Of a DNA stretch of 64,000 nucleotides, positions 1 through 64,000 are shown piece after piece (the first letter of the stretch is position 1; each line of letters begins with the position of its first letter). Origin of the DNA: Vairimorpha necatrix (taxonomy: Eukaryota); contig CP142731.1 in the NCBI GenBank assembly GCA_036630325.1, positions 1-64,000 of the forward strand. The letters run 5' to 3'. The position numbers were made by a program, and so were the translations under genes. The notes under the pieces are model-generated. The model had not been told where the DNA came from and made no database searches. It saw only the letters and a list, made by a program, of their open reading frames with translations.

Positions 1-2605
1 ACCTAACCTACCTAACCTACCTACCTACCTAACCTACCTACCTACCTACCTAACCTACCTACCTACCTAACCTACCTACCTACCTACCTACCTAACCTAC
101 CTAACCTACCTAACCTAACCTACCTAACCTACCTACCTAACCTACCTACCTACCTAACCTACCTAACCTACCTACCTAACCTACCTAACCTACCTAACCT
201 ACCTACCTAACCTACCTAACCTAACCTACCTACCTAACCTACCTACCACCTACCTACCTACCTACCTAACCTACCTAACCTACCTACCTAACCTACCTAA
301 CCTACCTACCTACCTAACCTACCTACCTACCTACCTAACCTACCTAACCTACCTACCTACCTAACCTACCTACCTACCTACCTAACCTAACCTACCTACC
401 TACCTACCTACCTAACCTAACCTACCTACCTAACCTAACCTACCTACCTACCTAACCTACCTACCTAACCTACCTACCTACCTAACCTACCTACCTACCT
501 ACCTACCTACCTACCTAACCTACCTAACCTAACCTACCTAACCTACCTAACCTACCTACCTAACCTACCTACCTACCTAACCTACCTACCTAACCTACCT
601 ACCTAACCTACCTAACCTACCTACCTAACCTACCTACCTACCTAACCTACCTAACCTACCTAACCTACCTAACCTACCTAACCTACCTACCTAACCTACC
701 TACCTAACCTAACCTACCTACCTAACCTACCTAACCTAACCTAACCTAACCTACCTAACCTACCTACCTACCTAACCTACCTACCTAACCTACCTAACCT
801 ACCTAACCTACCTACCTACCTAACCTACCTAACCTACCTAACCTACCTAACCTACCTAACCTACCTAACCTACCTACCTAACCTAACCTACCTAACCTAC
901 CTACCTAACCTAACCTACCTACCTAACCTACCTACCTAACCTACCTAACCTACCTAACCTAACCTACCTACCTAACCTACCTACCTACCTACCTAACCTA
1001 CCTACCTAACCTACCTAACCTACCTACCTAACCTACCTAACCTACCTAACCTACCTAACCTACCTACCTACCTACCTACCTAACCTACCTAACCTAACCT
1101 ACCTACCTACCTAACCTACCTAACCTAACCTACCTACCTAACCTACCTAACCTACCTACCTAACCTACCTACCTAACCTACCTAACCTACCTACCTAACC
1201 TACCTAACCTACCTAACCTACCTAACCTAACCTAACCTACCTACCTACCTACCTACCTACCTAACCTACCTACCTACCTACCTACCTACCTAACCTACCT
1301 AACCTACCTACCTACCTAACCTACCTAACCTACCTAACCTACCTACCTAACCTAACCTACCTACCTAACCTACCTACCTACCTAACCTACCTAACCTAAC
1401 CTACCTAACCTACCTACCTACCTAACCTACCTACCTACCTAACCTACCTAACCTACCTACCTAACCTACCTAACCTAACCTACCTACCTAACCTACCTAC
1501 CTAACCTACCTAACCTACCTAACCTAACCTAACCTAACCTACCTACCTACCTAACCTACCTAACCTACCTACCTAACCTACCTACCTACCTAACCTACCT
1601 AACCTAACCTAACCTACTACCTACTACCTAACACCACCTACCTAACCTACCTACCTACCTAACCTAACCTACCTACCTACCTACCTAACCTACCTACCTA
1701 ACCTACTAACCTACCTACCTACCTACCTACCTAACCTACCTACCTAACCTAACCTACCTACCTACTACTACCTAACCTACCTACCTAACCTACCTAACCT
1801 ACCTAACCTACCTACCTACCTAACCTACCTACCTAACCTACCTACCTACCTACCTACCTAACCTAAAACCTACCTACCTACCTACCTAACCTACCTAACT
1901 AACCTACCTAACCTACTACCTAACCTACTAACCTACCTAACCTACCTAACCTACTACCTAACCTAAACCTACTACCTAAACCTACCTACCTACTACCTAA
2001 CTACTAAACCTACCTACTACTACCTAACCTACCTACCTACCTAACCTAACCTACCTACCTAACCTACTAAACCTACTAACCTACCTAACCTACCTACCTA
2101 ACCTACCTAACCTACCTACCTACCTAACCTACCTAACCTACCTAACCTACTACCTACCTACCCTACCTAACCTAACCTAACCTAACCTAACCTAACCTAC
2201 CTAACCTAACCTAAACCTAACCTAACCTACCTAACCTAACTAACCTAACCTACCTACCTAACCTACCTAACCTAACCTAACCTACCTAACCTACCTACCT
2301 AACCTACCTACCTACCTAACCTACCTAACCTACCTAACCTAACCTACCTAAACCTACCTACCTAACCTAACCTAAACACCTACCTAACCTACCTAACCTA
2401 CCTAACTATACCTAACCTACCTAACCTAACCTACCTACCTAACCTACCTAACCTACCTAACCTACTACCTAACCTAACCTACCTACCTACCTACCTACCT
2501 AACCTACCTACCTAACCTACCTACCTAACCTACCTACCTACCCTAACCTACTAACCTACTACCTACCTACCTACCCTAACCTACCTTAACCTACCTTAAC
2601 CTAAC
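1..2605. repeat. Telomeric array, composite (ACCT)n/(AACCT)n on + = (TAGG)n/(TTAGG)n on -
   Basis: The window starts inside a continuous C-rich array of ACCT and AACCT units in irregular order. Variant units (ACT, AAACCT, ACCCT, ACCTT) accumulate from ~1615 inward, and the array ends at ~2605. Confidence 0.97.
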
Positions 2606-2764
2606 ACGTAAGCTTTTAGACCTCAAACCTTTATGAATCTTTTGTTTAAAAAATTTATCACTTTATCAATATGTAACTAAAATAAATAAAAATTGAAAAT
2701 TTTAAGATAAATTTATCTAACTATCTTTATAATTCAATTATTTTTTTTCAGATTAATGATTATA

Positions 2765-2803
2765 TGTTATACTTTTATTTATTAGGAAAGTTCAACCTTA
2801 ACA
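2765..2803 (-). repeat. 3' mini-LTR (39 bp) of the Gypsy element
   Basis: Minus strand TGTTAAGGTTGAACTTTCCTAATAAATAAAAGTATAACA, directly after the polypurine tract. About 31/39 identical to 5873-5910. Confidence 0.8.
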
Positions 2804-5800
2804 TCCCCCCCAAACGGGTAGTCTTACGTTAAAAGCTTCTAATTAATCATTTTTATAATCTTCTAGGTCATAATGTCGTTTTTTAATGTATCTTCCGCTA
2901 TCAGTCCTTACAATAAAAGTATCATTCTCATACTTTCCCATCATTTTACCAACACTTGTAAATCTTCCTTTTGTACTTTTCATCTATTTACCCAAGTTTT
3001 TTATCTTGCGATTCTCACAGCCTGATCTACTTCAAATTTTTCTCTATGCTTTTGTTTAAACTTACTTGCATACACATTCTTTTTATTGTTTTCAATTAAG
3101 ACTTCTTTTCCTTGTTCTTTCCATGCTTCCATTGGTGTACATTTAATCGCTGTGTGTAGAGTGTTATTATAGGTTCTTGCAGCTTGTTCTAGTTTTTCCT
3201 CTGGGTTTCCTTCTTTTTTAATGATCATCGATTCCCTCATTGTTCAAATACATCGTTCTATTCTTCAATTACTCCTATGAGCTTCTAAACCTACTTTCCA
3301 TTGCATAATTTCGTTTTCTATACACCAAGTTACAAAATTCTTACTAAAAATTCCTTATGTTTTCCGTAATATATTCATCTAGGTATCTATCTCAAATATC
3401 CATTTTATAAAGTTTTAGACTAATTTCACTATCATTATTTTCTATCTTTGCGTCACATATTCTTGTTCTAAGTAGTCCATCCCTAATAGCACGTATCTTT
3501 CTATTTGCCAAATATCCAATACGTTAGAAAGTTTTTTAAATTTCTTAAATATTGTTACTTAATTGCTACCTCCCATCGTTTTTCTATTATTAATGCTACA
3601 TACTTCACAATTTTTTAGTGTTGTGGTTATCTGGTACTTCATACCGGACCAGTACCATCTTTGTTTAATCTTATAATGTGTTTCCTTAACTCCTCGATGA
3701 TTTAATTCCTCATGAACTCTACGAATTTCTGTACTCACTTATTTCTTCCTGTTGTATTTATGAATTACTCCTGTTGAGAACTTCCAAAAGTTTTTTCCTC
3801 TTCTAACCATGCGCTTTATTTCTTTCCTTTTCATCTATTTTTAGCCCGTTTCTACTTTCGCTGCTTTCTTTCACTTCGTTATTTTAAAATCTCTACTAAG
3901 AGCATCCACATACGTCATCCATTCGCCTTTTACATATTCAATAGTAGAATCATACTCTTGTATATATTATATCTATCTATTAATTATGTAATTATTGAAA
4001 AACGGTTTGTTTCTAATCATGGCCAGTCCTTTATGATTTGTCATTTATTGAAATTTACTTCCACCCAAATCTGACTCGATTTTCTTTATTCCAAATAAGG
4101 CTGCCAACATCTCTTTTTCACTAATCGTATACTTTTTATCTGTTGGTGTTATCATTTTTGATGCTCATTGTATCTGAATCCACCTTCCTTCTTTGTCTTC
4201 TTGCAATAGTATGGCTCCAATTCCCGTATCGTATGCATCTGTTCTTACTCTACACATTTTTTTTCTATCTACTATTTTTAAAATTTTAATTATCTTTAAA
4301 CCCTCTTTGATATCATAAAAGCTCTTTCCATATCTTCGGACCATTCCCATTATACATCTTTTTTTAGTGCTTCTGTAAGAAACGCTGACCGATAAGCATA
4401 ATGGGGAATAAAATTTCTTGATCAGCCTGCCCGTCCCTCAAATTCTCTAAGCTCATTTATGTTGTTAGGCCTTCTGTATTCTTTTGTCACTCGGAATTTA
4501 TTTTCCTTTGGTTTAATTTCTTCTCCGTAAATTGTTACTACAATAATTTTACTTCTCCTTTATATTGTATCTTTTTTAGTTTCTTTTAAACCATATTCTT
4601 AGAATTTTCGAAATATTTGTTTTAATAAATTATCGTGTATATTACTATCACTTACATGAATAATAATATCATCCATGTATACCTCATAACTTATCTAAAA
4701 CCCCGTTCATCACTCTTTGCATAATATATGGAGTATTTTTAAATCCCATTACCATGCTATTTCATCTGTAAACTCTAACATTTATCTCAAAAGTTCTCTT
4801 CTGTTTTTGAGCTTTTTCAATTTCTATATGATAGAATCCTTACTTTAGGTCTATAACCATAAATACTTTAGAACCTTGCGTTGCCCTAATAATGTCTCTA
4901 ATCAATGGCAATTCATACGGATCTTTTTAAACCAGTTCGTTTAAAGCCATCAAATCGAATACCGATCTCACTTCACTATTTGGTTTTTCTATGGGCTTTA
5001 TTAGGCTTCTCCATTCGCTCTTTGTCCTTCTGATAATACCTCTACTTTCTAATAAATTAATATACTTTTCTAACTTTTCTCGGAGTTTATAAGGAATATT
5101 TTGTTCCTTTTTAACTACTTTTACTCAATGTTTTGTTTTGATAGAACATTTTCTCCCGGTAAAGTATTTTATTTTCCCTTTGTCTTTTCCTAATACCTCA
5201 GGAAATTTTCCTTCCAATTCTTCATATTTATTAATATTTTTTCTTCTTTTATCTTGATTTGTATTTTTTATATAAAAACTGTTTCTTGAGTTCTTTCTTC
5301 CTACCTCCACTGGTAGTCTCAATTTAAAATCATTTCCTTTTAATATTTTCACTTTACTATAATCACGAATGCCAAAATATTTTTCACTTTTAATTTCATT
5401 ATTCTCTTCCTGCCTTCCTTTACGCTCCATACAACCTCTAGCTATATGTATATTTCTTCCACATATAAAACAATGTTTTCCTTCTCGTCTTTGATATTGA
5501 AAGTTTCTTCCTGGCACTGCTACAGTCCTAGTCAGATCTCTTTTTTTTTCTCTTTTTAATTTTTCTTTCATACCTCTACCTTTTCTTTTAGTTCTCTACA
5601 CCTTATTTTTTCCTTGTTCTTATTCTCTTTCTCTTCACAACTAATTTATCAATTTCATCAATAATATCATTCCAATTTATCATACTAATTAAATTTTTAT
5701 CAATAATAAAATTTTGAAGTTCAGTAATTACTTGTTTCGCCATTTCGTTGTCAAATCTTGTACATCTTTTTGCATTATGATGATTGTCTCACTCTTCGAG

Positions 5801-5872
5801 CTTCTTTTAGTAATTTATTGTTCTCTTAAACATGGCTCTCACTTGTTAACCTTTCGTATTTTGTGTTCGCCA

Positions 5873-5910
5873 TGTTATACATTTATCTAATAAGAGGTTC
5901 GACTTTAACA
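5873..5910 (-). repeat. 5' mini-LTR (38 bp) of the Gypsy element
   Basis: Minus strand TGTTAAAGTCGAACCTCTTATTAGATAAATGTATAACA, followed directly by TGGCGAACAC. Confidence 0.8.
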
Positions 5911-8900
5911 ATATAATTAAAACTTAAAGTATTTTTGGTGTAATTCTGCGAATAAATTTATTTAATTAAATATTGTAAAAGTTATAATTACTTCTTTATT
6001 TTGTAATATATATTATTGTAAAAAAAGTCATTTTTGTGTTTTAACATATTTCTTACTGGAAATATTCGTATTACACTAAAAAATAATATTGTTAGATATT
6101 CTACAAATAACTTAAATCTCGAATGCTGTACTATCGCATATATACAGACACAGGAGCATATACTCTATAGGAAAGCTCATGATAACCTCTTTGAATGATA
6201 AAATTAGATCATTATTCAAAGAAAGTAAAATGACGTAATATTTTCGAAACATTACGGACTAGATTCCAGTGATTGTTTGAAATACAATACGAATAACTAA
6301 TTACATTTATTTTTTTTACTATAATTATATGATTTTAAAATAGACCAATGAAAGTAATTTATATTTATCTAAATTTATATGATTTAATTTATTTTTTAAA
6401 AATAAAAAAATTTCGGAAAAAATTGTTTTTTGGAATTTTTTATTGAATATTTCTGCCTACTTAGGAGCTTCAAAGGGATGCGGCTTCTTCTAATGTACAA
6501 TCTTATTTATCTATGTATTTGCCCAACTGTTCAGGAAGTCTTTTATAATTACAAATGATATTGTGTCTATTTTTTATGTTCTCTTTGGGATTCAATTTTC
6601 TATGGTAGAAAATATAATATTTTTAAAATAAGAGGGTGTGTAAATATTGGATAATTGAAAAATACATCCTATAAAAAATTATTTGATTATATGATCATAA
6701 TACCCTAGATATGTTTTTTATACTTTTATATTTCTTTTTATAACCGTTAGATTTAGTTCTTGCTTGATCTATATATAATTTCAATTATGAAAAGAACTAG
6801 TTTGATATATTTGATAACCAGTTAATATTGATAAATTTTTGCGATTCAGATATGTTGTATATTCAAAATTATTGCGTAAAAAATTGCGGATAGTTATAAG
6901 GTAACTTAACATTCTCTATGAAAATGTTTTACTTAATGTGTTATGTTAAAATGAAATTTTATATAATAAAATAATACATGGATTATTAAAAAATTCTAAT
7001 TTTAAATTAAATCATTAGATTGATTTCATTCTACGAAAATCAAAATGTTTATATCAAAAAAACTCATAAAATTTTTTTTGTTTTAATAATTAAAATTTAT
7101 TCTATCAATTTATTATTATATTTTTTTATCAATTAAAATTTATATTAAATATTATTTTATAATTATTAGAAATCGTCTTTCGCATCTATGTTTTTATGAA
7201 ATTGGGTTTATGCATTAAAATATTTTAATTAAACTTTTTTCTGTCATTATTAAAGATAAAAATTGTTTTTTTAATTTATACGCTTTTTCATGATATTATC
7301 CTTAAATTTATATAAATATCTATTAATTAGTTGCATTGGGGTTTGTTTATACTTTTAATTAACCCTCCTTAGCTCTTATTGATTTATATTTTTTTATTCT
7401 TCGGTTAGTGTAAGATATTTTTCAATAAATTTACTAATATTGTATTTATTTTGATTTTATATTTACTATAATTATAGTATTAATAATAAATACTTGGAAT
7501 ATATGATATTTACTAGAAAAATTCACATGAAGAAATACGAAATTCATTTCCAGCCTAGTTTTGTGTATAAATTTACAATTTGTATATATATTGATTATTT
7601 TATTATGTGAAATGTATTTAATATGTTTTCTGGCCATTATTAGATTTATTTCTCAGATATTTATCATTGTTCCCATTGAAATAAATTTTTTTTTATAATA
7701 TTTTTACAGATTATAACCATAAATTTTAAAATACTGTTGTAATAAAGGATAACAGAATGAAATGTCGTTCGTTGTGTTCCTCTATAGATGTTTATATTTT
7801 ATTTTCGTCGTATGTCTTCATGTTTCTTTGAGACTTTAAATTTTTATTTATGAATTTTCTTGATATTATTGGGTTTTATACTACGTTTTTATAATAATTT
7901 TAAAAACTTAAGTTTTCATATAAAAATGAGTTTTTAGATATGAAGAACTCTCCAATGCTTCCTTGCGTTAAATAGTATTTTTTGTTTTACTAAAAGTATG
8001 ATTTAAATCATTTATAAAACTTTATGGAATAATGATTGTAATTTAATAACTTTAATCTACAATTTTCTAAAACCCTCCATGATACGGTTTCTTTTGAAAT
8101 ACAAATATATGAAAATCTTTAATAGATTATTTTTAATATTTTTATAAATTTTTCGTTATTGAATCATATGTTTCTCGTGTAGGTTGAATATATCATCATG
8201 TTTAACAATGTAGGTGTAATATATTGCATTGTTATTTTTCGATTGATATATTATTTTTAAAAAAGATTATGTCGTTATATGTTCTAAAACTATTACTTAT
8301 TCTAATCAGTCGTATGTGTATTATTATGAGCAAAATTTGAAAATATAAAATTCAATTTAATGATCAAAAAATATTATTTTCGTTTTAGTGGTTGAGACTT
8401 CTAGATTTATTAGTCGTGAAAATTTAATTGTATAAAAAGTTTCTTTTTTTTACTTATATAGAATAATTTGAACGTTTAGTTTGAATGTTTTTATTAACTT
8501 TTCTAAAAGAAAATATTTATTTTCAAAACGAGTTTTAGTCCAATATGTTTTTTTTTTTTAAAAAAAAAGTTATCCTACTACTTTAAATAAATTTTCTTTT
8601 AAAATTTTTTTTGTAATATTAACCTCAATTATCTGTATTGAAATTGCATTTCGAAAAATATTAGTTGTTTCAAAGATTTTTATTGGCATTATGTTTATTT
8701 TACTTGTAGATAAATCCTTGTGTATTAAAAATTTATATTGAAGTAAAAATGTTTCTTGACCTTTTCATACTTAGATTTAATCTAACGCTTTTTTTAAACT
8801 ATAGACAATATATAATATCAAAATTAAATTTCAATTTTTCTTCAAAAATATTGACTATAACGTTTATATTCAAATTTTTAATCTAAAAATTTTAAATATC

Positions 8901-12246: not shown

Positions 12247-14223
12247 TTAGGTATTACCCGGGAGTTGGCCATTCCTCAGATAGCATTCTATAATGCTTCT
12301 CCCGGGTATTAAAGTTTTATTATAATGCAAGTTGTATTATTAAATCTGCCTCCTTGGGCTTTATCTTTCCTCTTCTAAGGATGCATTGATTGATACTGCT
12401 GATTTCTAGACTCCTCTGTTCTTATTGACATATTTTGGTGGGGGTAAAAATAAAAAGAAAATATTTATATATATGTTAAATTCTAGAAAATTCATTTGGA
12501 GAAAAAATATAATAATGTGGTAAATAATACCACATACTACCTCCTCTAAAGGGTCAGCAAATTAGAATACGGATTCCTTTGAAATCATCAAATAGTTCTT
12601 TCCGCCGTTTCCTAGTAATAGCTGGGTTGGATATTTTAAACCTCAAATCAAGGTATGAGTTCAACTTATCATATTTGAGCTTCTCAGATTCACCGTTTAC
12701 TCCATATCTACATATGCTAAATGGCATCTGCTGCATTTTATTTTTAAGGCAATGTTTTCTGAAAGTGTCAAGATTTAATTTATTTTTATTCTGATAACTA
12801 TCATATTTAGATGTTGCCAAATCTTTTACCTGTTGATGGTTATCTTTAATTTTATCAGGAGGCTTGCTTCTTTCTTTGTTATTTATTTTAATAATTCTTG
12901 AATATATATCATCTGATGGTATCGTATCTTCTGTCCTTTTCACAAAGTCAACTATATTAGTTAAGACTTTAGCTGGAAGATTGTCTATTTTTTATTCAAA
13001 TTCCTTTTAATACAAAGTCGTATTATTTATTCTTTCATTTATACATTTCTGTTTATTGATGTTTTATTTTCTTTTTGTTTCTGAATTAATAGGCAGTCGG
13101 TTTTTTTATGTTTTTCATCCAATTCATCGTTAGGAATTTTCTTTTATCATTAACGATTTTCCTTCTTTTTTTATTTCTCTATCGTTGGCTTTTGGTTTTT
13201 GTAGACGACAATCTCGTGTATCTTGTGATCTTGCTCGATGTATAGAGCACCACTTATCACTTTTAAAGTATCTTCCTGTTTCTTCAGGTCTTTCATAATT
13301 CTCTTTCTTAGATATAAATTGAGATATTCGTGTCCCTTCCAGTTTCGCATGTAAAATAATCATTTCTTCCAAATCTTGTGAATATTTTAATAGCTCGTCC
13401 ATTCCCTTGTTTTTCATTCCTGATTTTAAAACTTCAATGGCAGTTGATCTGTCTAATTTTCTCTCAAAAATCTGTTTCAATCTAACATCATTTCCTTTTT
13501 CGATAGGTTTATAGATAGTCCGTATATTTTAATCATCGACTCTAGTTTCTCATAGTAATCTGCTATACTTCTATAATTTACCTGTTATACAGTTTCCATC
13601 TCTGTTAATAATAAAGCTACATCATTTTTTGGATATCTAAATTCTAGTAGTTCTTTTTTTTGTTTTTTGAAGCTTTTCTTATTTAGCTTATCTTTCACCT
13701 TAGAATCTTCAATCAAAGAATGGTAGATGAGTCCCATCTGCTCATCAGTCCATTTATTGGCCGTTCCTAGCTCTTCAAACAGCTTGAGATGCTTTATGGT
13801 GCAGTCTCGTTTTACATTTTTCGATTTTTTCTTTAACCACTATTGTAGTTCCTTCTGTGGTTTTATCAAATGTGGTATATGCTTCATCATCATTTTGTTT
13901 CTCAGTATTATTACTTTTTTCTGATACTAATGAGCTCATTGAGGTATTACCCAAAAGTTAGCTGCTCCTCAGATAGCATTCTATAATGCTTCTCAGAGTA
14001 TTAAAGTTTATTATAATTAAAGTTGTATTATTAAATCTGCCTCCTTGGGCTTTATCTTCCCTCTTCTGGGGATGCATTGATTGATACTGCTGATTTCTAG
14101 ACTCCTCTGTTCTTCTTGACATATTTTGGTGAGGGTAAAAATAAAAAGAAAATATTTATAGAAAAATAAATTCTAGAAAATTCATTTGGAGGAAAATATA
14201 ATAATGTGGTAAATAACACCACA
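12247..14223 (-). mobile_element. Internally deleted LTR retrotransposon with ~285-bp LTRs
   Basis: Highly similar LTRs at 12247-12534 and 13940-14223, a perfect 5-bp TSD (AATTC), and a PPT-like AGAGGAGGTAGTA before the 3' LTR. Gag-like remnants LFEELGTANKWTD and KWCSIHRARSQDTRDC. No RT visible. Confidence 0.9.
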
Positions 14224-20189: not shown

Positions 20190-20778
20190 TGTGGTGTTAG
20201 CACCAGGGATGCGGCCTGTTTGTAAATAGCACTCGATGGTGCTCCTCCCTGCAATATGTTTATGATTATTATAATAGTAATATTGTTTATTTATTAAAGA
20301 GTGTTCTCTTGTCCTTCTTGTCCTGTATCAACGGGACTTTGCTATATTTAAAATAGCTTTCTAAATAGTTTTTATTATTATATAATTTATTGATGGTTTC
20401 TCTCTTTCTCTTATACTCCATACCCTTCACAGACAGACTTTCTTTTATATTTTATTTTTAATTTATTATTTCTTGTCAACACTAAACACAAACATTGGCG
20501 TACTTACGAATGTAGTAACGACCATCCAACTTTCGTTTGTTTGTTTGTGTGACTCATCTTGACAGGTCATTTGAAATGCTTGACATGTCTTTAGACATCA
20601 GTGACAGCTGATGGTTTTAGCAGCTGTCCATGTGATGTAGTAATATACATCACACTTCTCATGTTGATCGACCTTAGGGGTAAAATAAAAGGAAAATATT
20701 TATAGTAAAATATTTTCTAGAATATTCGTTTGGAGGGAATATAAAATAAAAATAAGTAATGTGGTAAATAATACCACA
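20190..20778 (-). mobile_element. Solo LTR related to the 12247/13940 LTR family, carrying a nested insertion
   Basis: TGTGGT...ACCACA termini with a perfect TSD (ATAAA). The right ~100 bp (GGGGTAAAATAAAAGGAAAATATTT...TGTGGTAAATAATACCACA) match the 12247 and 13940 LTRs. Confidence 0.8.
20474..20654. repeat. Nested TG...CA repeat (solo-LTR-like), copy A
   Basis: Reverse complement of 22046-22196 (e.g. CACAAACATTGGCGTACTTACGAATG). Flanks TTTCT/CTTCT match 4 of 5. Confidence 0.7.
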
Positions 20779-21319
20779 ATAAAGCATTTCTACTCCCTTA
20801 ACTTCTACCAAATACTTGCGCTGCACTATCTCCGACTTAGCCATTGGGATTTGATTTGGTAAGAATATTTTTATATACAAGCCTCTAATCGCATCATTAA
20901 ATCAATAAATATATTAAAATGAAGATTTTAAAACCTCTGTATAGATTTAGCGTATTAATATTATGTCTATATAAAAATAAATCATCTAGATTCCAGATGG
21001 CTCTTTCTCTTACACAGAACACTAAAAGCAAACTTATTAAACTTCTTTGTAACTAATGAAATAATTGAACAGATCTCCATCTTATACTATATCTTGTTTG
21101 TATAATAACAAACTTCACAAATTTCTACATCAAGAGTGCCATAATCGGCTTTTAGATCCCTATAGAATATACAGCTATGGTATTATGAAACACAGAAGGA
21201 CAAATTATATGTAATAAGAATTTAAAGTGTGAATATATTTAAGAAATTAATGATCAATTCATTACAAGAGATACTTTTCATAATATTTGTTTAGTCTATC
21301 AATTTTGAAATATTATATT

Positions 21320-21448
21320 TAGTGACGTCTGAATGTCCGCGAGTAGATATCTTTATACTTAAAATAAATTTAAATTTTTTCTTACCGAGAATCGAACCTT
21401 GGACCTTCGAAATCCTAAATCAAGGTGCAACTATTCTGCCAAGCACAC
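21320..21448 (-). mobile_element. tRNA-derived SINE-like head or pseudo-tRNA
   Basis: Minus strand has A-box-like TGGCAGAATAG and B-box GGTTCGATTC at tRNA-like spacing, but no intact cloverleaf or acceptor stem. Confidence 0.5.
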
Positions 21449-22045
21449 TTATTAAAAATTTTGTTATCCATTAAGAAAACCAATTATAGTTTAACTTCCT
21501 TTAATTTTTGTTTTCTTTCTATACATAAAGAAAATTTTCAAATTAGTCAGATTGAAAGATCATTAAGCGATTTAACCAAATAATAGAATAATTTACAATA
21601 TTAGTTTTATGCATTCTTATATAAAATAAAATTATATAAGATTTTCTTGATCCCAATATACTTTTTTAATATATATATACTTGTTATACTAAAAAATAAT
21701 ATACACTTTACACGGCAAAAAACAAGTATATATCCTATATTATATACAAAATACTTTCATATGTGATCGCAAATTTTAAGATTTACTGGCATCGTATTTC
21801 AATTTCTCTATTAAATCTGGCAATTTTGTTATTCTTATTTTCCATACCCTCTAAAGTAAATTTTTTTAAATAATTTTTTCAACAAGTTAAAACTGTCATT
21901 TGTAAGAATATGTTTAATATGTATTTGATCTGCTACAACTATATATGAACTACATTCTTTTAAGAATTTAAACTAAAAAATAATAAAAACATATTTATGT
22001 GATTTAACTAATATTCTTTATTGAGATTTTGTTTTTCTTAGATAC

Positions 22046-22196
22046 TGTGATGTACATTACTACAACACTTGGACAGATGTCAAAAATATGTCAACCGTTT
22101 CGGATGGCATGTCAATTTGGGTCACATAATCAAACGAAAGTTGCATGGTCGTTACAACATTCGTAAGTACGCCAATGTTTGTGTTATGTGTTGACA
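22046..22196. repeat. Inverted copy B of the 20474-20654 repeat
   Basis: TGTGATGTACATTACTACA...CATTCGTAAGTACGCCAATGTTTGTG...TTGACA is the reverse complement of copy A. Confidence 0.8.
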
Positions 22197-22199
22197 ACA

Positions 22200-22510: not shown

Positions 22511-24669
22511 AATGTTTAGATTTCTGCAGAATGCAAATAAGATCTTAAAATATAAATATATATGTACACAATAATTATATAGTTTAGAAATAATGAATTC
22601 CTAAACTTTTAAAATTTTACAACTGTAACTATTATTTTGGAAAAAATATTTTATTTTGACATTACGATTGATTTTTAGTAAAAATTTAATTAAATTTTGA
22701 ATTTCTTCAAAAATGTCAAAAGAATTTAAAAAATTTAAAGGCCGTAAAGTATTTCAAAAATTATTATCTGGTCATCTTTTTAATTGAGTTGTTATTCTGT
22801 AGACAAAGAAAAATTAGTAATAAATTTCAAAACAAGATCATCGAATAAAGAGTAATTAACATTTTTGTTTAGTTTTTGATTGTATATTTTTTGATTAATT
22901 TATAAAGTAAAATTTGTTTTATTTTTGCTATTAAATCCTTTAAATTCAAAATATACGCTCTTTTAAATTTTTGTTTATTTTAAATTTCCCTCCTAAAATA
23001 TTAAATAAAATTTTTTTGTTTATGGGCAATGAGAAATCAAAGATTGGATTGGTGCAATAAAGAGATGAGTTAAGTTTGGAGTGACAATAAAGTTTGTGAA
23101 ATTAATACTACTATAAGTAGAGGATTATACAATATCTAATCAAAGACAGTCAATTTTTTTTCTGCTAGTGTAATAATCTTTATATTTTATGCTCATGATC
23201 TTTTTTTATCAACAAATGATTATTATACGAATTATTTACTTCAGAAATTTGAGTACCGTTAGTTATACCAACTTCAATGGACAAGACCTTATAGCGCTTG
23301 CGCATCCCACGTGTCGCGAGAAGTTGAAAAGTTGGAATACAGATGTATACTCAAATTTCCGAAGTATTAAATTGTATAATAATCATTAGCTGATAAATAA
23401 GATCATAAGCATAAAATAAAAAAAATACATTAACAGTGAAAAACCACGGGCTGTCACAAGAATTGTAATTGCAGCTTTTTACTATAATTATATAAAAGCT
23501 CTTCCGCTACATGTGCTTTACCCAAATTAAGTCATATAATCTATTGATAAACATAAGGTTTCTCCGGTCATATATTTCTAGTCCGTAGAAAATAATGATT
23601 TTAATGATCGCATTTATACCTAATTATTGCCAATCAAACATAAGTATGATTATTACATAATCATTGTGATGAATGCATGCGAAAACTTCTATAGATATAA
23701 GTTTACCATTATCTGAATAAATAATTCAATTATTCAGAGGGATATTAGAATTAAGATCAAAATTATAAATATTAGATATTTAGACACAGTTTTACGTAGA
23801 ATAAAAGGCAATTTTAGACATTTCGAGCATTTAAATAATCCTACTTACTAATATTATTCATAGAGCATCAGTCTGATGAATTGTGTGATATGTGTAAACA
23901 AGAATATTTTGATAATTAACTAGTATTTAATTTATGATTATAAGAATTTAAAAAGATAATTTATGAAAACTTTTAAAATGCTTAATATTTTATGTGTCTC
24001 TTCCATGTACTGATATAAATAAATGGTAAAATTCAAAACATTATCATATTTAGTGTTATAACACTATACGATTAACAATGAATATTTTGAATTAAGAAGT
24101 ATGCATAAATATCCCTAATTCTCAATTTGCTATTAATTATAAACAGATGTATAAGGATAAAATTTTAGAAATATCGAAAACAAAATATTAAACAAAAAAG
24201 TATTTTATATATACAATAGAAATTGTTATTAATGAGGTTTCTATATAAAAGATATACAAAAAAATATTAGTTCAAAATGTTAAGTCCTTTTTACTTTTTT
24301 TTGACCTACTACTGATTTAACGAGTATATATTATACGATCAGATATAAAATATTTTCTCTAATAGAAAGATACTAACATAACAATCAGATATATATATAT
24401 ATTTTGTAATTGAAGGTGGTCTAATCATCTCCTGAACAGGTTTGCCAATATTATCATATATTAAAAGTAAGTTTTTCTAAAACTATCCTTTATTAAAAGT
24501 AATTTTGATCTCGTAAAATCAATGAGATATCTTAAGATCAAGATGTTACAACTAATTTTATAATATCTTATATTAGGTCGCAAAATTCTATGTTATACTA
24601 CCATAAGATATCGTTGGGATATAGTTATATTTCGACATAAAAATAAATGAATCTAATTAGGGGATGCTT

Positions 24670-29232: not shown

Positions 29233-29958
29233 TGTTAAAGATAAATGTATGTGAAGGGTTAATTTATAAAATATATATTCTCAACATCCCGCGCTGAATT
29301 TACAACTAAGTATTTTATATATTTGTACTTTTAACTCGCTCACTACTTGGCTCTCATAATAATAGTGCAATTTTATCTTAACAGACCATGGGCTGCTTTA
29401 TTCTTTTGCATCTTAATATCTTCTCTTGTTTTGGTCTTTACAGTTCTTTCTTTCCCTGTTGAAATAAATTTCCTCGATAAGCATGAAAAAAAATTTTAAC
29501 ATGTCTTCTTAACATTAAAACCATGATTTTATCTATCTATTTCATTATTCAACTATAACACTGTTTTTTTTTTGATTTTCTTCTCTTTTTAAATCTCTCT
29601 GGATTTCGAATACTGGTGGTTCAGCTATCTTCCCACGATAGCTTTAATATTAATGGTGATTACCACTACACTCAATATCGACAACTTTTATGTCAGATAT
29701 TACAAGATCAAAACTGTTTCAAATAGCAATCCATAGCTACTCTAAGTCTTCACATATGCAAGACATCACCTTCTCTTCTGTTAGACATCCAACACCCCAA
29801 TCTGTCATATACTGCATTTTTTTTACGTCTCATGCCTCGGCGGAACTTACAACCTTTTCTTTTGTTTATGTTTGGGTTCGATCATTTTTTTTATTGTCCA
29901 CCATGTTAAAGAAAATTGTAAGTTAAGGGTTAAATTTTTTAAATATATATTCTCAACA
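29233..29958 (-). mobile_element. Non-autonomous miniature LTR element (TRIM-like) with 54-55-bp LTRs
   Basis: Direct repeats at 29233-29286 and 29904-29958 (TGTT...AACA). PBS TGGTGGAC abuts the 5' LTR and a degenerate PPT (GCGCGGGA) abuts the 3' LTR. About 620 bp of decayed interior. No TSD. Confidence 0.8.
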
Positions 29959-35352: not shown

Positions 35353-36311
35353 GGCAGTCTGGTGGCCAAAAATCCCTTAAAAGGAATTTTTAAAAAAATC
35401 ACCCCAAAAATGAAAAGTCAAGAGGAAAAACTTTTTGAAATTTTTAAAATATATTGAAAAAACAAGCAAATCATGTATAAAATGTGGTTCTATAAGTAAA
35501 AAATATTATGAAAATGTTATTTTTCGATGTACTTGGTCTAAATGTAGAAGTAAATGGTCTTTATTAAAAAACACTCCATTCTACAATAACAAGCTTGGAA
35601 TTAATACTATGTTATTAATTATTAAATCATGGTCTGTTAATGTAAAGTATAAAGCTATTGCGGAATTTCTTGAAATTACCATTAAAAGTGTAATAAAAAT
35701 CATTTCTTTAACAGTAAATTCCATCGAAAATTCTGTTTACGTTGAAACAGGTATAAATGGAGGACCTGGGATTGTTGTGGAAATAGATGAAAGTAAGTTT
35801 GGTAAATTAAAATACCATAGAGGCCATGGGTAGAAGGAGTTTGGATTTTCGGAATGGTAGAAAGAACACCTCAAAGGAAAATTGTGTTTGTTCCTGTTGA
35901 TAATAGAAGAGCAACTACACTAGAAGAACTTTTAAAAAAAATATGTTCACCCAGAATCTATCATACATAGTGATTGCTTCTCTTCATATTCTAGGTTGTG
36001 TTCAATTTTTCAACAACATAAGACGGTTAATCATTCAAAAGAATTTGTTAATAAAAATAAATATGCCATACTAATACTATCGAAGGTAATTGGAGCGCTG
36101 TTAAAAGTGAAACTTCCATAAGGCATAGAACAAAAAAATTAATAAAGAGTTCTTTGTTAAGATTTATGCTTAGAAGAAATTTTGAAGGGAATTTGTTTGA
36201 TAAAATTATTAAAATGATTTTTAAGTTTTTATTTTTTTCATCTTGACTTTTCATTTTTGGGGTGATTTTTTTAAAAATTCCTTTTAAGGGATTTTTGGCC
36301 ACCAGATTGCC
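35353..36311 (+). mobile_element. Merlin (ISXO2/IS1595-like) DNA transposon with frameshifted transposase
   Basis: Near-perfect ~75-bp TIRs (GGCAGTCTGGTGGCCAAAAATCCC...). Motifs CIKC...CTWSKC, GGPGIVVEIDESKFGKLKYHRGH, WIFGMVER, IHSDCFSSY, HKTVNHS and HTNTIEGNW lie across several frameshifts. No clear TSD. Confidence 0.93.
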
Positions 36312-58118: not shown

Positions 58119-60350
58119 TTATTTTTTATCATAATTTTCCAAAATCTTGGTTAAATTTCTGTGAAATTTCACTCCTATATTGTAATCATTCAGAATTTCA
58201 GATAATTCATTTTCACACAGCAACATTCGAATTTTTTTAATTTTTTTTTCCGCAAATTCTTTAAAAATTTTTTTGTTACTAATTTCATTGTCCAAAAGAG
58301 ATTCAAGAGATATTAAAAAATCATTTTTTATAGTATTTCTTATATTTAAATTAATTAACTTGTTTAAATCTCGAGAGAAAATTTCAAGTTCGTCTTTTTT
58401 ACATTCATAAAGCAATTCTGCATTAATTCCTGCCGATACATTGGATACATCTTCTGTCAAACATTTATTACTAAAGATCTTTTCAATTACATTTACTCCG
58501 TTTTGACGTAATCGTTTTTCAAACATTTTAGTTTTATTTTTATCATATAAATAATTAATTTTTTTATTTAAAGCATCATGCTTAATTTTACATAGTGCCG
58601 TAGATAATCTTTTTTCATAGAAACTATAAACAATATTTTTCAATTCTTTTCTATAACGATATAGTGCTTCGTTAATACGTTGGTTTCTTGTGTTTTCTGA
58701 TAATTTTTTTCTTATTATTTCATTATTATTTTCAACTGTAATATTATTTAAGCAAAAAAAATCAAAAACTCTATCTTTTTCAATATAAAAATGTACATAT
58801 TCAAGTATACACAAATTTTGCTCATATCCTGTATATAATGATGTTATCGAAAAAATTTGCTTCCATATATTGTTCATGTATGCCTGAATATCTTTAAGAT
58901 GAAATTTTACAGCGACGTGGAATATTTCAATTAAATCGATATTTTTTATGACATTATATTGATTATCACATGGTATAAACCCTGCTTTTTTCTTGATAAG
59001 AGCGGCGATATTGCTCAAAATTAATAATATTGGTTTATCACTAACATCATTTTCATTTATAAAACGTTCAACTTCGTATAATAAACAGATTTTTATCAGG
59101 AAAGTACTCGCTAAAAAACTACAATTGCATAAATTTGTTATTATTTTTTCTATAAGCAGATTTTTCGATGTTTCATCAAATTCTTTGTTTCTTAAAATTT
59201 TACTTAGATTAAATTCTTTATACAAATTATCAGACAACAATATATGAAGTAAAATCAAATAAATTGCACTTCCTCTTTTATTTAAGATTTTTTTTAAGAA
59301 GAATTCTGCACGACCACCTGTTTCTAATAATCTAAAAAGCAATTCCACTTCGTTATGACATTCACCTAAAGTCTTTATATAATAGGTTTTTCTAAAAAAC
59401 TCTTGAAATTCCAAAGATGTCGAATTTGTAAAAATGGCTTCATGTTGTAAAGAATATATATATTCCTTGTAATTTTGTGTAAAACGTATTTCGTCATTAT
59501 CCATTTTAATTTTGAATATATTGTGATAAAATTCAATTTTATTTAACGTACAAACCGAAAAATAAGATATATTACGCTTAACGATTTTATCAACATATAT
59601 AAATTTATACAATTCTTTAAGGTGAATACATATTTGGTGGTCAATTTCATTAATATGTTCTCTTATCATAATTGTATGTGGAATAAGATTTTCAGAACCA
59701 AGTTCTTTAATATTTAATTCAAAGAAATAATGAACCTTGTCTATATTTATACAAATACATATGTAGCGGGAATTGCTCCTTTTAATATAAGAAATTGGAG
59801 ATTGTGGAAAACATAATCTACCCTGGACAATGCTAGTCTTAAATTTTAAATTTGTAAATACTTTGTACCAAAGAACATCATTTTCCATGATGTATTCATA
59901 AAATAGTTCATCTTTGAGTCTTAGTTTTTTTTGTTTAATATTTTCGTTTTTTATATGTTCAATTAAGTTCTTAAAAATAGGACGAACCTGGAAAAATAAC
60001 GGATTATAAATCAAAACGTTATAATCAGCCAAATAATTTCTATGTTCCATTAAAATAATGTGTTTAAATTCTTTAACTACAGTTAAAATAGATTTGTTAG
60101 TGCAATTAATCTTTACATTTTTAGTTTCTTGTCTTTTTTGAAACCCTTTGATCTCTACTATAATATCTACATTAATATTATTTTGTCTGATATCAAAATC
60201 CATTAAAATTCTCAAATATCGTTTATCATAATCAATTGTAGTATAATCACCGCTTTCTATTTTTTTTATTAGTACCAAATTTATCTGATTAGAAACATAT
60301 TGACCCGATTTTATAAATAAAATAGTAAAAGCAAATTTAACGACATCCAT
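58119..60350 (-). CDS. Hypothetical 743-aa protein, predicted secreted, paralogue of 45252-47426
   Basis: Long ORF starting MDVVKFAFTILFIKS, with TTACCCCAT before the ATG and AATAAA overlapping the stop. Shared motifs IK.IE.G, CTLN.I, IL...GSAI, I.LIE.F, L.TG and NNE.IRK. Confidence 0.93.
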   Translation of the reverse strand: MDVVKFAFTILFIKSGQYVSNQINLVLIKKIESGDYTTIDYDKRYLRILMDFDIRQNNINVDIIVEIKGFQKRQETKNVKINCTNKSILTVVKEFKHIILMEHRNYLADYNVLIYNPLFFQVRPIFKNLIEHIKNENIKQKKLRLKDELFYEYIMENDVLWYKVFTNLKFKTSIVQGRLCFPQSPISYIKRSNSRYICICINIDKVHYFFELNIKELGSENLIPHTIMIREHINEIDHQICIHLKELYKFIYVDKIVKRNISYFSVCTLNKIEFYHNIFKIKMDNDEIRFTQNYKEYIYSLQHEAIFTNSTSLEFQEFFRKTYYIKTLGECHNEVELLFRLLETGGRAEFFLKKILNKRGSAIYLILLHILLSDNLYKEFNLSKILRNKEFDETSKNLLIEKIITNLCNCSFLASTFLIKICLLYEVERFINENDVSDKPILLILSNIAALIKKKAGFIPCDNQYNVIKNIDLIEIFHVAVKFHLKDIQAYMNNIWKQIFSITSLYTGYEQNLCILEYVHFYIEKDRVFDFFCLNNITVENNNEIIRKKLSENTRNQRINEALYRYRKELKNIVYSFYEKRLSTALCKIKHDALNKKINYLYDKNKTKMFEKRLRQNGVNVIEKIFSNKCLTEDVSNVSAGINAELLYECKKDELEIFSRDLNKLINLNIRNTIKNDFLISLESLLDNEISNKKIFKEFAEKKIKKIRMLLCENELSEILNDYNIGVKFHRNLTKILENYDKK

Positions 60351-60360
60351 ATGGGGTAAC
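60351..60360 (-). promoter_or_regulatory. CCC start-proximal motif
   Basis: Minus strand GTTACCCCAT-ATG. Confidence 0.75.
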
Positions 60361-62461
60361 TCTAGCTTATTTGGATTTAATCAAAATCCTATAAAAAATG
60401 GCAAATTTATGTATTATAGAATTTTTTTGCAATCAAAAATCATAATAATTTGTTAACACAAAAAAATATGAGCAAGGGGATCTAAAACAAAATAGGGTTG
60501 AAATTTGATGGCTAGATATAAAAAGTCTATAAAAAATTGAAATCAAATTTTAATAAACTAAATACTGAAAAAAGCATTATTTTCACTAATTTTCTAGTCA
60601 TAATGACTTATTTTCTAAGATATTTATAACAATACACTTATAAACACAATCTAAGTAAACATTTGTAAAAATATAAAGGTGGTTTTGTTTAACTTGTTTG
60701 CAGTTTATAGCCAATAATAAAAATTTTCAGAAAATTTATATTTTCTTGACTGGTTGACATGTGTCAGATAAAACTGTTTGATATTTTTTTAAAAAAAAAT
60801 ATTTAAGAGAATACACATTGTATGCCTGCAAATTATCTTTCAATATACCTTGTTTTGTAATGCTTCAAAAGGAAATTTATTTTTAATCGTCTTATTATAT
60901 TATTTATAGATAGAATATCCAATGATAGATATGTATAAAAAAAAAAACTCAATGTTATTACGATCTTAAATTTTAATAATTTCAAATCTAATTTGTTGTA
61001 TCATCTAGTCTATTTAAGACAAGACGCCATTTCGGTGAATATATTGCGATAGATATCAAGAAATAAAATATACGTATTTAAAAATCGTATGTAAATTAAA
61101 TACTAACTGTAAGTTTTATTTAACATAGTTTTTTTTCTAGTTTTTTCATATAGATATATCAATAATATGGAAGCAATACATAATGTTTTCACTCCACATG
61201 AAATAATAATCGTTGTATATGACATTAGAACATATTCATAATAAATAATGATAAAAGATAATCCTGAATTTGGGTGTTCTAAGCGTATCAAAAATTTACA
61301 AAAAAGATGATTTAGTTTTTACTAAAATTCATTTAGTAACTAATTTTTAAACACAGGCTTTTTATGAAATTAAAAGACCAAAAAATTATTATGAACATTA
61401 TAGTGAAACAAAAACATATTTTCAGTCATTAAACTAAATTTATCATACAAATTTTTTTAGTAAGGTCGGCAAATGACATGTTTAAAAAAATTTACCATAT
61501 TAAATGTTTATTAGCAGTTAAAATGATAAAAAAAATTCGCAAATATTTTTTAATATTAAATCGACTCATTTGAAAAATACATAGCTGGATTTTTAAATTG
61601 CATATTTGCGCACATATATGATACTTGGTCTTCAAACAGATCCTTTTTGGATCATAAAATTTCAAATAATATTTCTATTCAGAATGTAGCTTAGTTTTTT
61701 TCAAACAATATTTCTATTTTACTGTTATGTCATGACCATATAGATTAAAAAAACTATGTTTTAAATTTATTTTTATAAGAAAAATTATGACTTAATGACA
61801 ATAATAAATACTTGAAATGTATTTTTACAATATTACTATTTATTCTAGCTCGCACCAAGGTAATAAAAACATTAAATTGCTTGTTTTCAAATTTACTAGT
61901 TCTTTTTTATGCGTATATAATCGCAAAGTGGAAAAAATTGTTTCGTATAATGTGGTGATTTTTTTGGGCAGGGAATATATCTAGTTATCACCATAAGAAG
62001 TAAAAACTTAACTACACATACGTATAAACAAGTTTGAACATCATAAAATGTATATTATTTGAAGGTTTTTTATGCCATTTTGATCTCTTGATATAAATTA
62101 GAAATAAAAGTATGAAGTACATTATCCATGAGTTACTTATATTTAACTTTAAAAATTTTAAAAAGTAGTTCATCAAAGCAGTGATAAAATACTTCAATAT
62201 ACGATTAAAAATTGTAGTTTTAGTTTTAATGATGGACTGGTGCTAAATTTTTAATATATCTTAACAATCGCTTTTTTATTAAATATACAATTATCAATCC
62301 CAATTGAAAATTTAATAGAAATGTTTTAGTTTTCAGGTATGGAAGATATTTGCATATTAAAATGACTACAATATAAAGGGAATTCAGCAGTATTTATGTC
62401 TTGGTTTTCGTTTATACAGCACCAACCTCCCATATTTATGCTATATGTAATTCCGTAATCA

Positions 62462-63500
62462 TCATATATATAAAAGAATTTTATTTAATTTTTTACCCCT
62501 CTTTTTTGTGGGTTTGAAATTACTAAACGATACATTTTGATGCTTTTACGTTATTAAAATATTAAAAATAAATTCAATGTTTTAATTTGACTATTCCAAG
62601 TGTGTATACTATGTGTTAATACATTTTGATTTAGTTTGTTATTTTTGGAAAGCATGGTCCCAAAATATCGTCAGAATCGTTGTTTAGAATTTATTTGACC
62701 CTTCCGCGAAAAATTGTAAAAACATTTAACCAATAATGATTTTAAAGATAAAGGTCAAAAGTTGAGCTTAGAAGTTTATAAAAGCATTTCAATATGACTC
62801 AAAAGTGTTTTTAACTTAACTTAACTCCTTATATGTTACTAAAAAGTATTTTTAAAAACGATGTCTTCATCCTATCAAATTCAATCATCCCGAAATAGAA
62901 ACTCACCAAAATTTACCGAGGGGCGACATATTAAAAAACAAAACATTCAAAACCCGTTTTCAAAACGGGAAAGCATACGCTAGTCATATTATAAAAGAAT
63001 TTTATTTAATTTTTAACCCTTCTTTTTTGTGGTTTTGAAATTTCTAAACGGTACATTTTGAGCCTTTTACGTTAATATAATATCAAATTTAATTTTAACG
63101 TTTTAATTTGATAATTGTAAGTGCGTATATTATATATTAATGCATTTTAATTCATATTATTATTTTTGTAAAACTCAGTTCTAAAATATCGTCAGAATCG
63201 TTTTTTAGAATTTATTTAACCCTTCTAGAAAAATTTTAAAAATAATTGCCAAATAAAGATTTTGAATATAAGTGTCAAAAATTGAGCTTAGAAGTCCCCA
63301 AAATTATTTCAATATGACTCATAAGTGTTTTTAAAAACTTTACTCCTTATATGTTACTTAAAAGTATTTTTAAAAAGATGTCTTCATCCTGTCAAATTCA
63401 ATCATCCCAAAATGGAAACTTAAAAAAATTAAAAGGGGAAATACATATTATAAAACTAAACATTTCGATGCCGTTTTCAAAACGGGAAAGCATACGCTAG
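62462..63500 (+). mobile_element. Head-to-tail dimer of a ~520-bp non-autonomous Helitron
   Basis: Units at 62462-62983 and 62984-63500. Each starts TC and ends with the hairpin CCGTTTTCAAAACGG ~11 nt before CTAG. Outer flanks are A and T, with no TSD. Confidence 0.88.
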
Positions 63501-64000
63501 TTATTTTTATAAAGCAATTTAATTATACATACCAAATTAAACAACATGTTTTAGAATAGTCTATAAAAAAATTTGCAGCATAAGGCATACATTAAAATTG
63601 TATTGCTAAAAAATTTAATAAATATTAGTATAAAAATCATTTATAAACAGAAGTTTCCGAAAAAATATATATCGACTTATAAATGACAACATATTGTTAT
63701 TCTGAAACTATATTTCCTGGAAACATTAAAGGCGCCTATAATAATAAGATTTTTTGAATCAAAAATTTTGAGACTAAAGTGCGTAAAAATTATATAATGT
63801 ATAAAAACAATTTATCTATAAATAATGAAAAAAACTTTAAAGATTTTATTTTGATATAGTATCTAATAAAGTATTCATTTTTGTAAAACCTTTTATATAA
63901 TATTTCCTTCTTCTATTAATAACAAAGAATTTTTTTCGTAATTGGTCGAAACATTTGACAAAATCTTCATCGATATTATCTATAGATTGAAGTTGGCTAT

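Follow-up and report, generated by a model that had tools for sequence, protein, structure and literature searches.

The long terminal repeat (LTR) retrotransposons closest to the one described here come from other Microsporidia. Fifty complete families have been tabulated for Anncaliia algerae, 46 of them with LTRs of 105–272 bp and four with LTRs below 100 bp (Parisot et al., 2014; PMC4202319, Table S1). The retroL consensus is listed there with an LTR of 50, a total length of 3,127 bp and an open reading frame (ORF) at 32–3049. By eye, the repeats in the retroL sequence are 49 nt long (TGTTA..TAACA), carry a CCC followed by an ATG and are followed directly by TGGCG, and about 50 codons separate the zinc knuckle from the reverse transcriptase (RT). 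For retroS the LTR and ORF columns of the table look swapped, the repeat being about 81 nt by eye. In the available main text of that paper the words "protease" and "primer" are absent and LTR length is not discussed. Elements of Nosema bombycis are reported, at second hand, "nearly all" to encode Gag, protease, RT, RNase H and integrase (PMC2474625), and the available part of a further paper mentions only a single polyprotein (PMC13174016). Here we describe a Ty3/gypsy element of 3,146 bp on the minus strand (5910 to 2765) of a 64,000-nt stretch of Vairimorpha necatrix DNA (contig CP142731.1, positions 1 to 64,000), which we call the window. We read it, with a probability of about 0.8, as an ancient copy, complete in length but no longer active, of a microsporidian Ty3/gypsy lineage whose minimal build is inherited: its elements are about 3.1 kb long, with LTRs of 38–50 bp and one ORF of about 1,000 codons filling the space between them.

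Terminal repeats in the window copy and its relatives

The two LTRs of the window copy begin with TG and end with CA, and 31 of their 39 alignment columns are identical (about 79%); the likeness stops at those ends. In a ranking of 1,116 TG..CA candidates from the window this pair comes first with a score of 22, ahead of a runner-up at 13. Shuffling the middle of the repeat, with its ends kept, gave a score of 22 or more in 0 of 200 trials, whether the comparison was with the partner or with the whole window. In the element sense, TGGCGAACAC directly adjoins the 5' LTR, and TGGCGAAC is the sequence immediately after that LTR. The purine run at the other end has 8 nt, which is short for a polypurine tract (PPT); relatives are purine-rich at this place (L005 less purely so), and in intact ones the ORF can continue through the run into the LTR. 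The first-pass annotation, made from the letters of the window, had proposed a gag-RT-RNase H-integrase remnant between 38/39-bp repeats, with an abutting TGG site and purine run, a 4/5 target-site duplication (TSD) and an AATAAA in the 3' copy. All of this holds (Table 1): the coordinates of the repeats are exact, AATAAA occurs twice, overlapping, in the 3' LTR only, Pfam recognizes RT, RNase H and integrase, and gag is recovered by tblastn to relatives. Along the element come mini-Gag and zinc knuckle, then the linker, and after it RT, RNase H and integrase.

The coding region, aligned to the related protein P0004, has 25 stops and 3 frame changes, with more frame changes in gag. Together with the 79% identity of its LTRs, this makes the window copy old and dead. 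It is also collinear with the relatives P0004, P0005 and P0055 from the first codons to the end of the integrase, and is thus full length, without internal deletion. It sits 160 bp internal to a telomere-like array (window 1-2603) in which 345 TAGG units are mixed with 213 TTAGG units.

Table 1. Features of the V. necatrix element, in window positions
Feature	Positions	Strand	Remarks
TSD, upstream copy	5911..5915	-	TATAT
5' LTR	5873..5910	-	38 nt, TGTTA...TAACA
ATG inside 5' LTR	5880..5882	-	LTR nt 29; same frame as the junction ATG (MYN-MANT); inferred as the most likely start
Junction ATG	5871..5873	-	last LTR base A + TG of primer site; MANTKYERL
Putative primer-binding site	5855..5872	-	starts TGGCG; also gag codons
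Mini-gag remnant	5431..5882	-	about 140-150 codons, broken by stops and frameshifts; tblastn to P0005, P0055, P0013
Mini-gag parts: small helical bundle, long charged helix, CCHC zinc knuckle		-	knuckle at 5472-5431; helices from model of relative L022
Low-complexity K/R/E/N-rich linker	5203..5430	-	about 76 codons at the usual protease place; no protease
RT remnant	4317..5202	-	YMDD 4679-4668; Pfam RVT_1 E 2e-12
RNase H remnant	3883..4316	-	TDA 4242-4234; Pfam RT_RNaseH E 1.5e-19
Integrase remnant	2864..3714	-	HHCC 3714-3598, core, C-terminal KKRHYDL 2884-2864; Pfam Integrase_H2C2 E 4e-11; tblastn
Polypurine run G7A	2804..2811	-	adjoins 3' LTR
3' LTR	2765..2803	-	39 nt; two overlapping AATAAA at 2783-2774
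TSD, downstream copy	2760..2764	-	TATAA, 4/5 match

The proteins closest to the element are P0005 (Nosema granulosis, 70% identical over RNase H) and P0004, and among the best 120 of 137 matches about 65 proteins are 40–73% identical to P0004. Many of these relatives are single ORFs of about 1,000 residues, running from gag to integrase on contigs of 3.0–3.2 kb. The named members among the matches listed belong to Nosema, Vairimorpha, Enteropsectra and Nematocida; two relatives bear the labels of bacterial metagenome-assembled genomes, which we take as binning contamination. These relatives, together with the telomere type, by themselves make a microsporidian host probable. All neighbors in the protein searches were of gypsy type, and the trees described below contained no copia or BEL outgroup. 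In contigs of two sequencing runs 364 and 560 matching pieces fall into several identity bands, consistent with a multi-copy family; no LTR ends of other copies were seen in these contigs. Run X3, which contributed little, was left out. A metagenome scan gave seven loci, three close (L022-L024) and four of distant gypsy elements, whereas a scan of viral contigs gave no relatives among 20 pattern matches and an Atlas search gave only scores below 0.9. Two side observations belong here. The bacterial genome bins G001 and G002 (loci L001-L021 and L029-L041) hold 47 and 14 eukaryotic retroelement matches, probably through contamination, and L022 and L023 contain a protease-less element that continues in frame from the RNase H of a different retroelement and has no 5' LTR (protein P0053).

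DNA of relatives was taken from the two genome bins and the metagenome scan, and 27 sequences were screened for ends. Ten loci besides the window yielded a full LTR, the rest being truncated, degenerate (L029) or of other lineages. Of the loci discussed here as lying in or near the clade, L001 and L024 were placed by tree, and L002, L018 and L012 by best match only. L024 has LTRs of 39 and 39 nt, identical at 38 of 39 positions, within a perfect TTATA duplication; it is 3,163 bp long and itself decayed. In L001 the 3' end is 38 nt long and takes in the stop codon; L012 has a 5' end of 49 nt, and the 5' end of L002 (47 nt) and the 3' end of L018 (46 nt), on separate contigs, are identical at 45 of 47 positions. 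Protease-bearing or more distant relatives have LTRs of 58 nt (L005), 69 nt (L031), 75 nt (L015 and L038) and 172–176 nt (L011). The TSD is a perfect 5 bp in L024 and 4/5 in the window, and is unmatched in the bin contigs of L005 and L015. In Logan contigs the difference between contig and ORF length has a median of 62 nt and is at most 100 nt in 17 of 20; as assembly collapses identical LTRs, this difference was not used for LTR size, and shows only that there is little non-coding DNA between the LTRs.

Two further elements of the window bear on the range of LTR lengths in this genome. A gypsy-like element with an internal deletion lies at 12273-14223 (minus strand). Its direct repeats, at least 262 bp long (92.7%), start TGTGGT and contain CCC...ATG; it has a gag-like knuckle, and its repeats are evidence that some LTRs of this genome are longer. 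At 29233-29958 (minus strand) a 726-bp element has LTRs of 55 and 54 bp, 48/55 identical, a TGG site reading MVDN and a purine-rich tract, with neither pol nor a matching TSD. In its LTR it is similar to L005, a protease-bearing element (42 of 62 columns), and it looks like a non-autonomous derivative comparable to a terminal-repeat retrotransposon in miniature (TRIM).

A short Gag and the place of the protease

In core members the stretch between knuckle and RT is typically 40–90 low-complexity residues, up to about 190, without a protease motif. A profile built from 24 distant gypsy proteases gives at most -1 bit in the clade proteins (0/49) and about 0 bits in three frames of the window copy (0/3), while the same profile gives 18–45 bits in seven of the nine nearest outsiders. 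The two outsiders missed are P0067, a fragment with half a protease, and P0075. The protease-less proteins form one clade, with Shimodaira-Hasegawa (SH) support of 98 (61 of 89 rows; this tree omitted 43 distant rows of 132), and in a second tree of selected rows with UFBoot/SH-aLRT values of 100/99 (16 of 26). Matches to Pfam Peptidase_A17 (E 0.03–0.07, with 25 of 65 families listed) were set aside, being below the cut-off and, in P0013, lying on the RNase H region. Loss of the protease by deletion in the window copy was likewise rejected, as intact relatives have none either. No protease is found in the clade, so it is filed as a gypsy-derived variant: as judged from its genes, it lacks the protease that belongs to the canonical Ty3/gypsy (Metaviridae) set. 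The linker columns hold no conserved candidate cleavage site. By eye, the linkers repeatedly end, just before RT, in a basic KR-x-K motif, possibly a nuclear-localization signal or a site of cleavage by the host.

Gag is reduced as well; its small size, the missing protease and the ATG within the 5' LTR had all escaped the first-pass annotation. At about 140 residues it has about half the size seen in protease-bearing microsporidian gypsy groups, and zf-CCHC is found in 26 of 35 aligned members at E<=1. In the AlphaFold model of the relative L022 (predicted local distance difference test, pLDDT, 78 and 88), three short helices lead into one of 65 residues, after which come the knuckle and a disordered linker. 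This arrangement leaves room for one capsid lobe only. No fold match exceeded Z 6.2 or fell below E 0.1, so the bundle can be assigned to a capsid only tentatively. The outsiders and the basal protease-less P0060 (Retrotrans_gag E 0.004) have longer Gags, apparently of two units, and the core bundle aligns weakly to the first of these. This suggests a stepwise history, from a full Gag with protease, through loss of the protease, to loss of one capsid lobe.

Start codon, promoter content and priming

Any CA directly before TGG yields an ATG, so the presence of the junction ATG is automatic and only its frame is informative. Two Met residues occur within the first 14 residues in 25 of the 43 proteins examined. 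In 24 of these 25 the second Met is preceded by H, Y, D or N, the residues of the four NAC codons (background 144/1,077), and in 23 it is followed by A, G or V (background 215/1,051). From these residues we read the two-Met pattern as the LTR end plus the TGG site in translated form, with an upstream Met before it. In the window copy MYN-MANT aligns from residue 1 to MTY-MANT of P0055 (N. granulosis). In nine of ten element types, the window's among them (L038 is counted after correction of a 1-nt overshoot), one copy or more has an open in-frame ATG 10–49 nt upstream of where the LTR ends, mostly just behind a CCC box of the host type. CCC occurs in the LTR of 9/10 types and AATAAA or ATTAAA in 10/10. 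The junction Met is in frame and widely conserved in relatives, the junction residue being Leu in P0060 and P0066, while P0037 and P0074 have no junction Met. In the A. algerae elements retroS and retroCK the LTR ends in ACT, which TGG then follows (PMC4202319). As a separate observation, retroA and retroM start AGTTGG and have, by eye, no TGG site after the LTR (PMC4202319, File S1).

Because the in-LTR ATG is so general and some relatives do without a junction Met, a start inside the LTR is the likelier one: where this ATG is present, translation probably begins there and reads through the LTR end and the primer site. The comparison of predicted proteins shows the primer site to be coding, with one frame running through the LTR end and the site. 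The first-pass annotation had placed the start of gag at the junction ATG and had the primer site double as its first codons. The junction ATG is indeed real, in frame and conserved, and the site is coding; its occurrence is automatic, however, and the first codons more likely lie upstream, inside the LTR. The proposal that the LTR is compressed to a microsporidian core promoter plus poly(A) signal agrees with what was found, in that the AT-rich stretch, CCC-like box, ATG and AATAAA match the pattern of microsporidian genes, in which the 5' untranslated region (UTR) is below 7 nt, AAUAAA signals occur and a CCC-like box stands directly in front of the start (PMC2803860).

As to priming, a search of the window and 18 loci with ARAGORN yielded no tRNA. 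No stretch complementary to the primer site and longer than 5 nt occurs in the LTR or the next ~280 nt of the window copy; in 7/7 elements the longest complement in the LTR is 4–5 nt, and none above 7 nt was found in the seven. Self-priming of the Tf1 type was rejected on this account. We infer priming by a tRNA, since a site starting with TGG fits a CCA end and no self-complement is present.

These features can be combined into a working cycle. The LTR would be a host core promoter with an attachment (att) site at each end. Its AT-rich/AATAAA stretch and CCC-like box would start transcription a few bases before the in-LTR ATG, and the same AATAAA would terminate it close to where the 3' LTR ends, so that R and U5 together, and hence the minus strong-stop DNA, would measure only about 10–20 nt. 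The CCA of a host tRNA would anneal to the TGG site, the plus strand would be primed by the purine run, and integrase would insert the product with a 5-bp duplication. The long helix may provide oligomerization in place of a two-lobed capsid.

Alternatives, autonomy and comparison with known systems

Several findings weigh against a lineage that is minimal by descent and have to be set beside it. Paired LTRs in the clade were available here, besides the window copy, only from the decayed L024 and a published consensus; the other ends are single. Short LTRs are not tied to loss of the protease, given the 58–176 bp of the protease-bearing L005, L031, L015 and L011. Neither LTR of the window copy has a CCC, and its 5' LTR has no AATAAA. 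P0075 has no protease yet falls outside the supported clade; it may represent a second loss. The helical bundle compares with the CA-like domain of MOAP1 at Z 5.5 (best 5.5–5.6; root-mean-square deviation 4.1, 79 aligned), tied with unrelated helical proteins, and weakly with the C-lobe of Arc (Foldseek E 7); the hhalign probability is 1%. The short repeats might also be leftovers of normal-length LTRs after deletion, or chance repeats. The age of the copy, with its divergent LTRs and many stops, would suit this, as would the at least 100 bp listed for the LTRs of 46 of the 50 complete A. algerae families (PMC4202319) and the long repeats of the gypsy-like element at 12273-14223. We consider it very improbable nonetheless, for both repeats share their ends, adjoin the primer site and the purine run and lie within the target duplication, and no shuffle reached their score. 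Relatives with LTRs of the same size contradict it directly: L024, the other ends of 38–49 bp and the 49-bp retroL answer, for the short LTRs, the possibility of deletion remnants that the first-pass annotation had itself raised. As far as these sequences go, they support short LTRs as a property of the family.

The start codon and the fate of the polyprotein also admit other readings. Translation might begin at the junction ATG, with the whole LTR non-coding. The conserved in-frame Met is what this would predict, and 11 of 43 proteins begin M-A/G/V in the database, though as a choice of the gene caller; no in-frame ATG precedes the junction one in the protease-bearing outsider L005 or in the 726-bp window element, which means that the junction codon can serve alone and counts against a general start inside the LTR. 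We find such a start doubtful for the family, in view of the in-LTR ATG of nine element types, the Leu or missing Met at the junction of four proteins and the ACT end of retroS and retroCK. With the short host 5' UTRs, moreover, a junction start would leave less than about 8 nt for strand transfer. A lineage of the same architecture could, in turn, be semi-autonomous: protease-bearing gypsy elements in its genome would cut its polyprotein and perhaps package it. The protease-bearing L005, L011, L015 and L031 share genome bin G001 with the protease-less L001, so that help in trans is possible, and this too speaks against autonomy, as does the L005-like 726-bp element in the window. Proteolytic processing is required in Ty3 and retroviruses. 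Helper-dependent elements, on the other hand, usually lose pol, and here RT, RNase H and integrase are kept at 40–73% identity across distant microsporidia, with a linker that has no conserved columns to serve as a cleavage site. We regard semi-autonomy as rather unlikely and lean slightly toward an autonomous element whose polyprotein is uncut, or cut by the host in the basic linker, with the long helix oligomerizing in place of a two-lobed capsid. A more specific form of autonomy is offered tentatively, as it may well not hold: an element without proteolytic maturation or closed capsid, with an uncut polyprotein of about 1,000 residues oligomerized through the long helix, an RNA that is coding almost end to end and a first strand transfer of about 10–20 nt, and still able to integrate.

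The window has other features apart from LTR elements. At 35353-36311, terminal inverted repeats of 78 bp (97%) enclose an ORF ending IDESKFGKLKYHRG, which has no Pfam match; the element is presumably Merlin/IS1595-like. Two non-coding stretches, at 20473-22197 and 23183-23418, have terminal inverted repeats of 67 bp and about 73 bp and resemble miniature inverted-repeat transposable elements. A tandem duplication of about 520 bp, 83% identical, occupies 62469-63501. ORFs of 726, 324 and 753 codons at 45252-47432, 49430-50404 and 58119-60380 (minus strand) have hydrophobic N-termini and no Pfam match, and possibly encode secreted parasite proteins.

If the lineage is minimal as we propose, the known floor for a working LTR is lowered to about 38 bp. 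Two things then become testable: how short R and U5 can be for strand transfer, and how promoter, poly(A) signal, start codon, att and primer site overlap. That an old and diverse gypsy clade has retained RT, RNase H and integrase but no protease also questions the need for a protease of one's own and a two-lobed capsid. There is a practical side too. Pipelines with a 100-bp LTR minimum are in use, according to the available text of PMC10025401, and would skip these elements, as the first-pass annotation had expected of standard finders; counts of intact LTR elements in microsporidia are therefore probably too low.

Among described elements, the Microsporidia-specific Ty3/gypsy groups (Parisot et al., 2014) and the Nbr elements of N. 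bombycis (Xu et al., 2006, as cited in PMC2474625) likewise have a single gag-pol polyprotein, the order RT-RNase H-integrase and hosts of the same group; the clade of the window copy differs, on the available accounts, in having no protease, a Gag of about half the size and shorter LTRs. The nearest in build is retroL, which, compared by eye, shares the LTR ends, the TGGCG after the LTR, an in-frame ATG in the LTR behind CCC, the single ORF and the short gag. It is represented by a consensus and a table row only, and the window copy has shorter LTRs and is decayed. The architecture had been proposed as undescribed. We found no description of ultra-short or protease-less microsporidian LTR elements in the literature searched, whose coverage of subscription journals is thin, but the same build stands in the 2014 supplement as retroL, and its layout is in part that of Ty1. 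As far as the available sources go, the architecture is thus present in published data and has not been remarked on in the literature searched.

Outside Microsporidia, parts of this architecture are familiar singly. In Ty1 of yeast, a Ty1/copia element, gag starts inside the 5' LTR and the primer-binding site is coding; in Tf1 of fission yeast a single ORF encodes all proteins. The window family is like Ty1 in the probable gag start within the LTR and the coding primer site, and like Tf1 in its single ORF. Ty1 and Tf1 each encode a protease, and their LTRs measure several hundred bases; Tf1 primes itself. TRIMs are non-autonomous, with very short terminal repeats, a primer-binding site and a PPT, and no pol. 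The short repeats with a putative primer site and PPT are common to TRIMs and the window family; unlike TRIMs, however, the family keeps RT, RNase H and integrase, and the full set between its LTRs rules out that identity.

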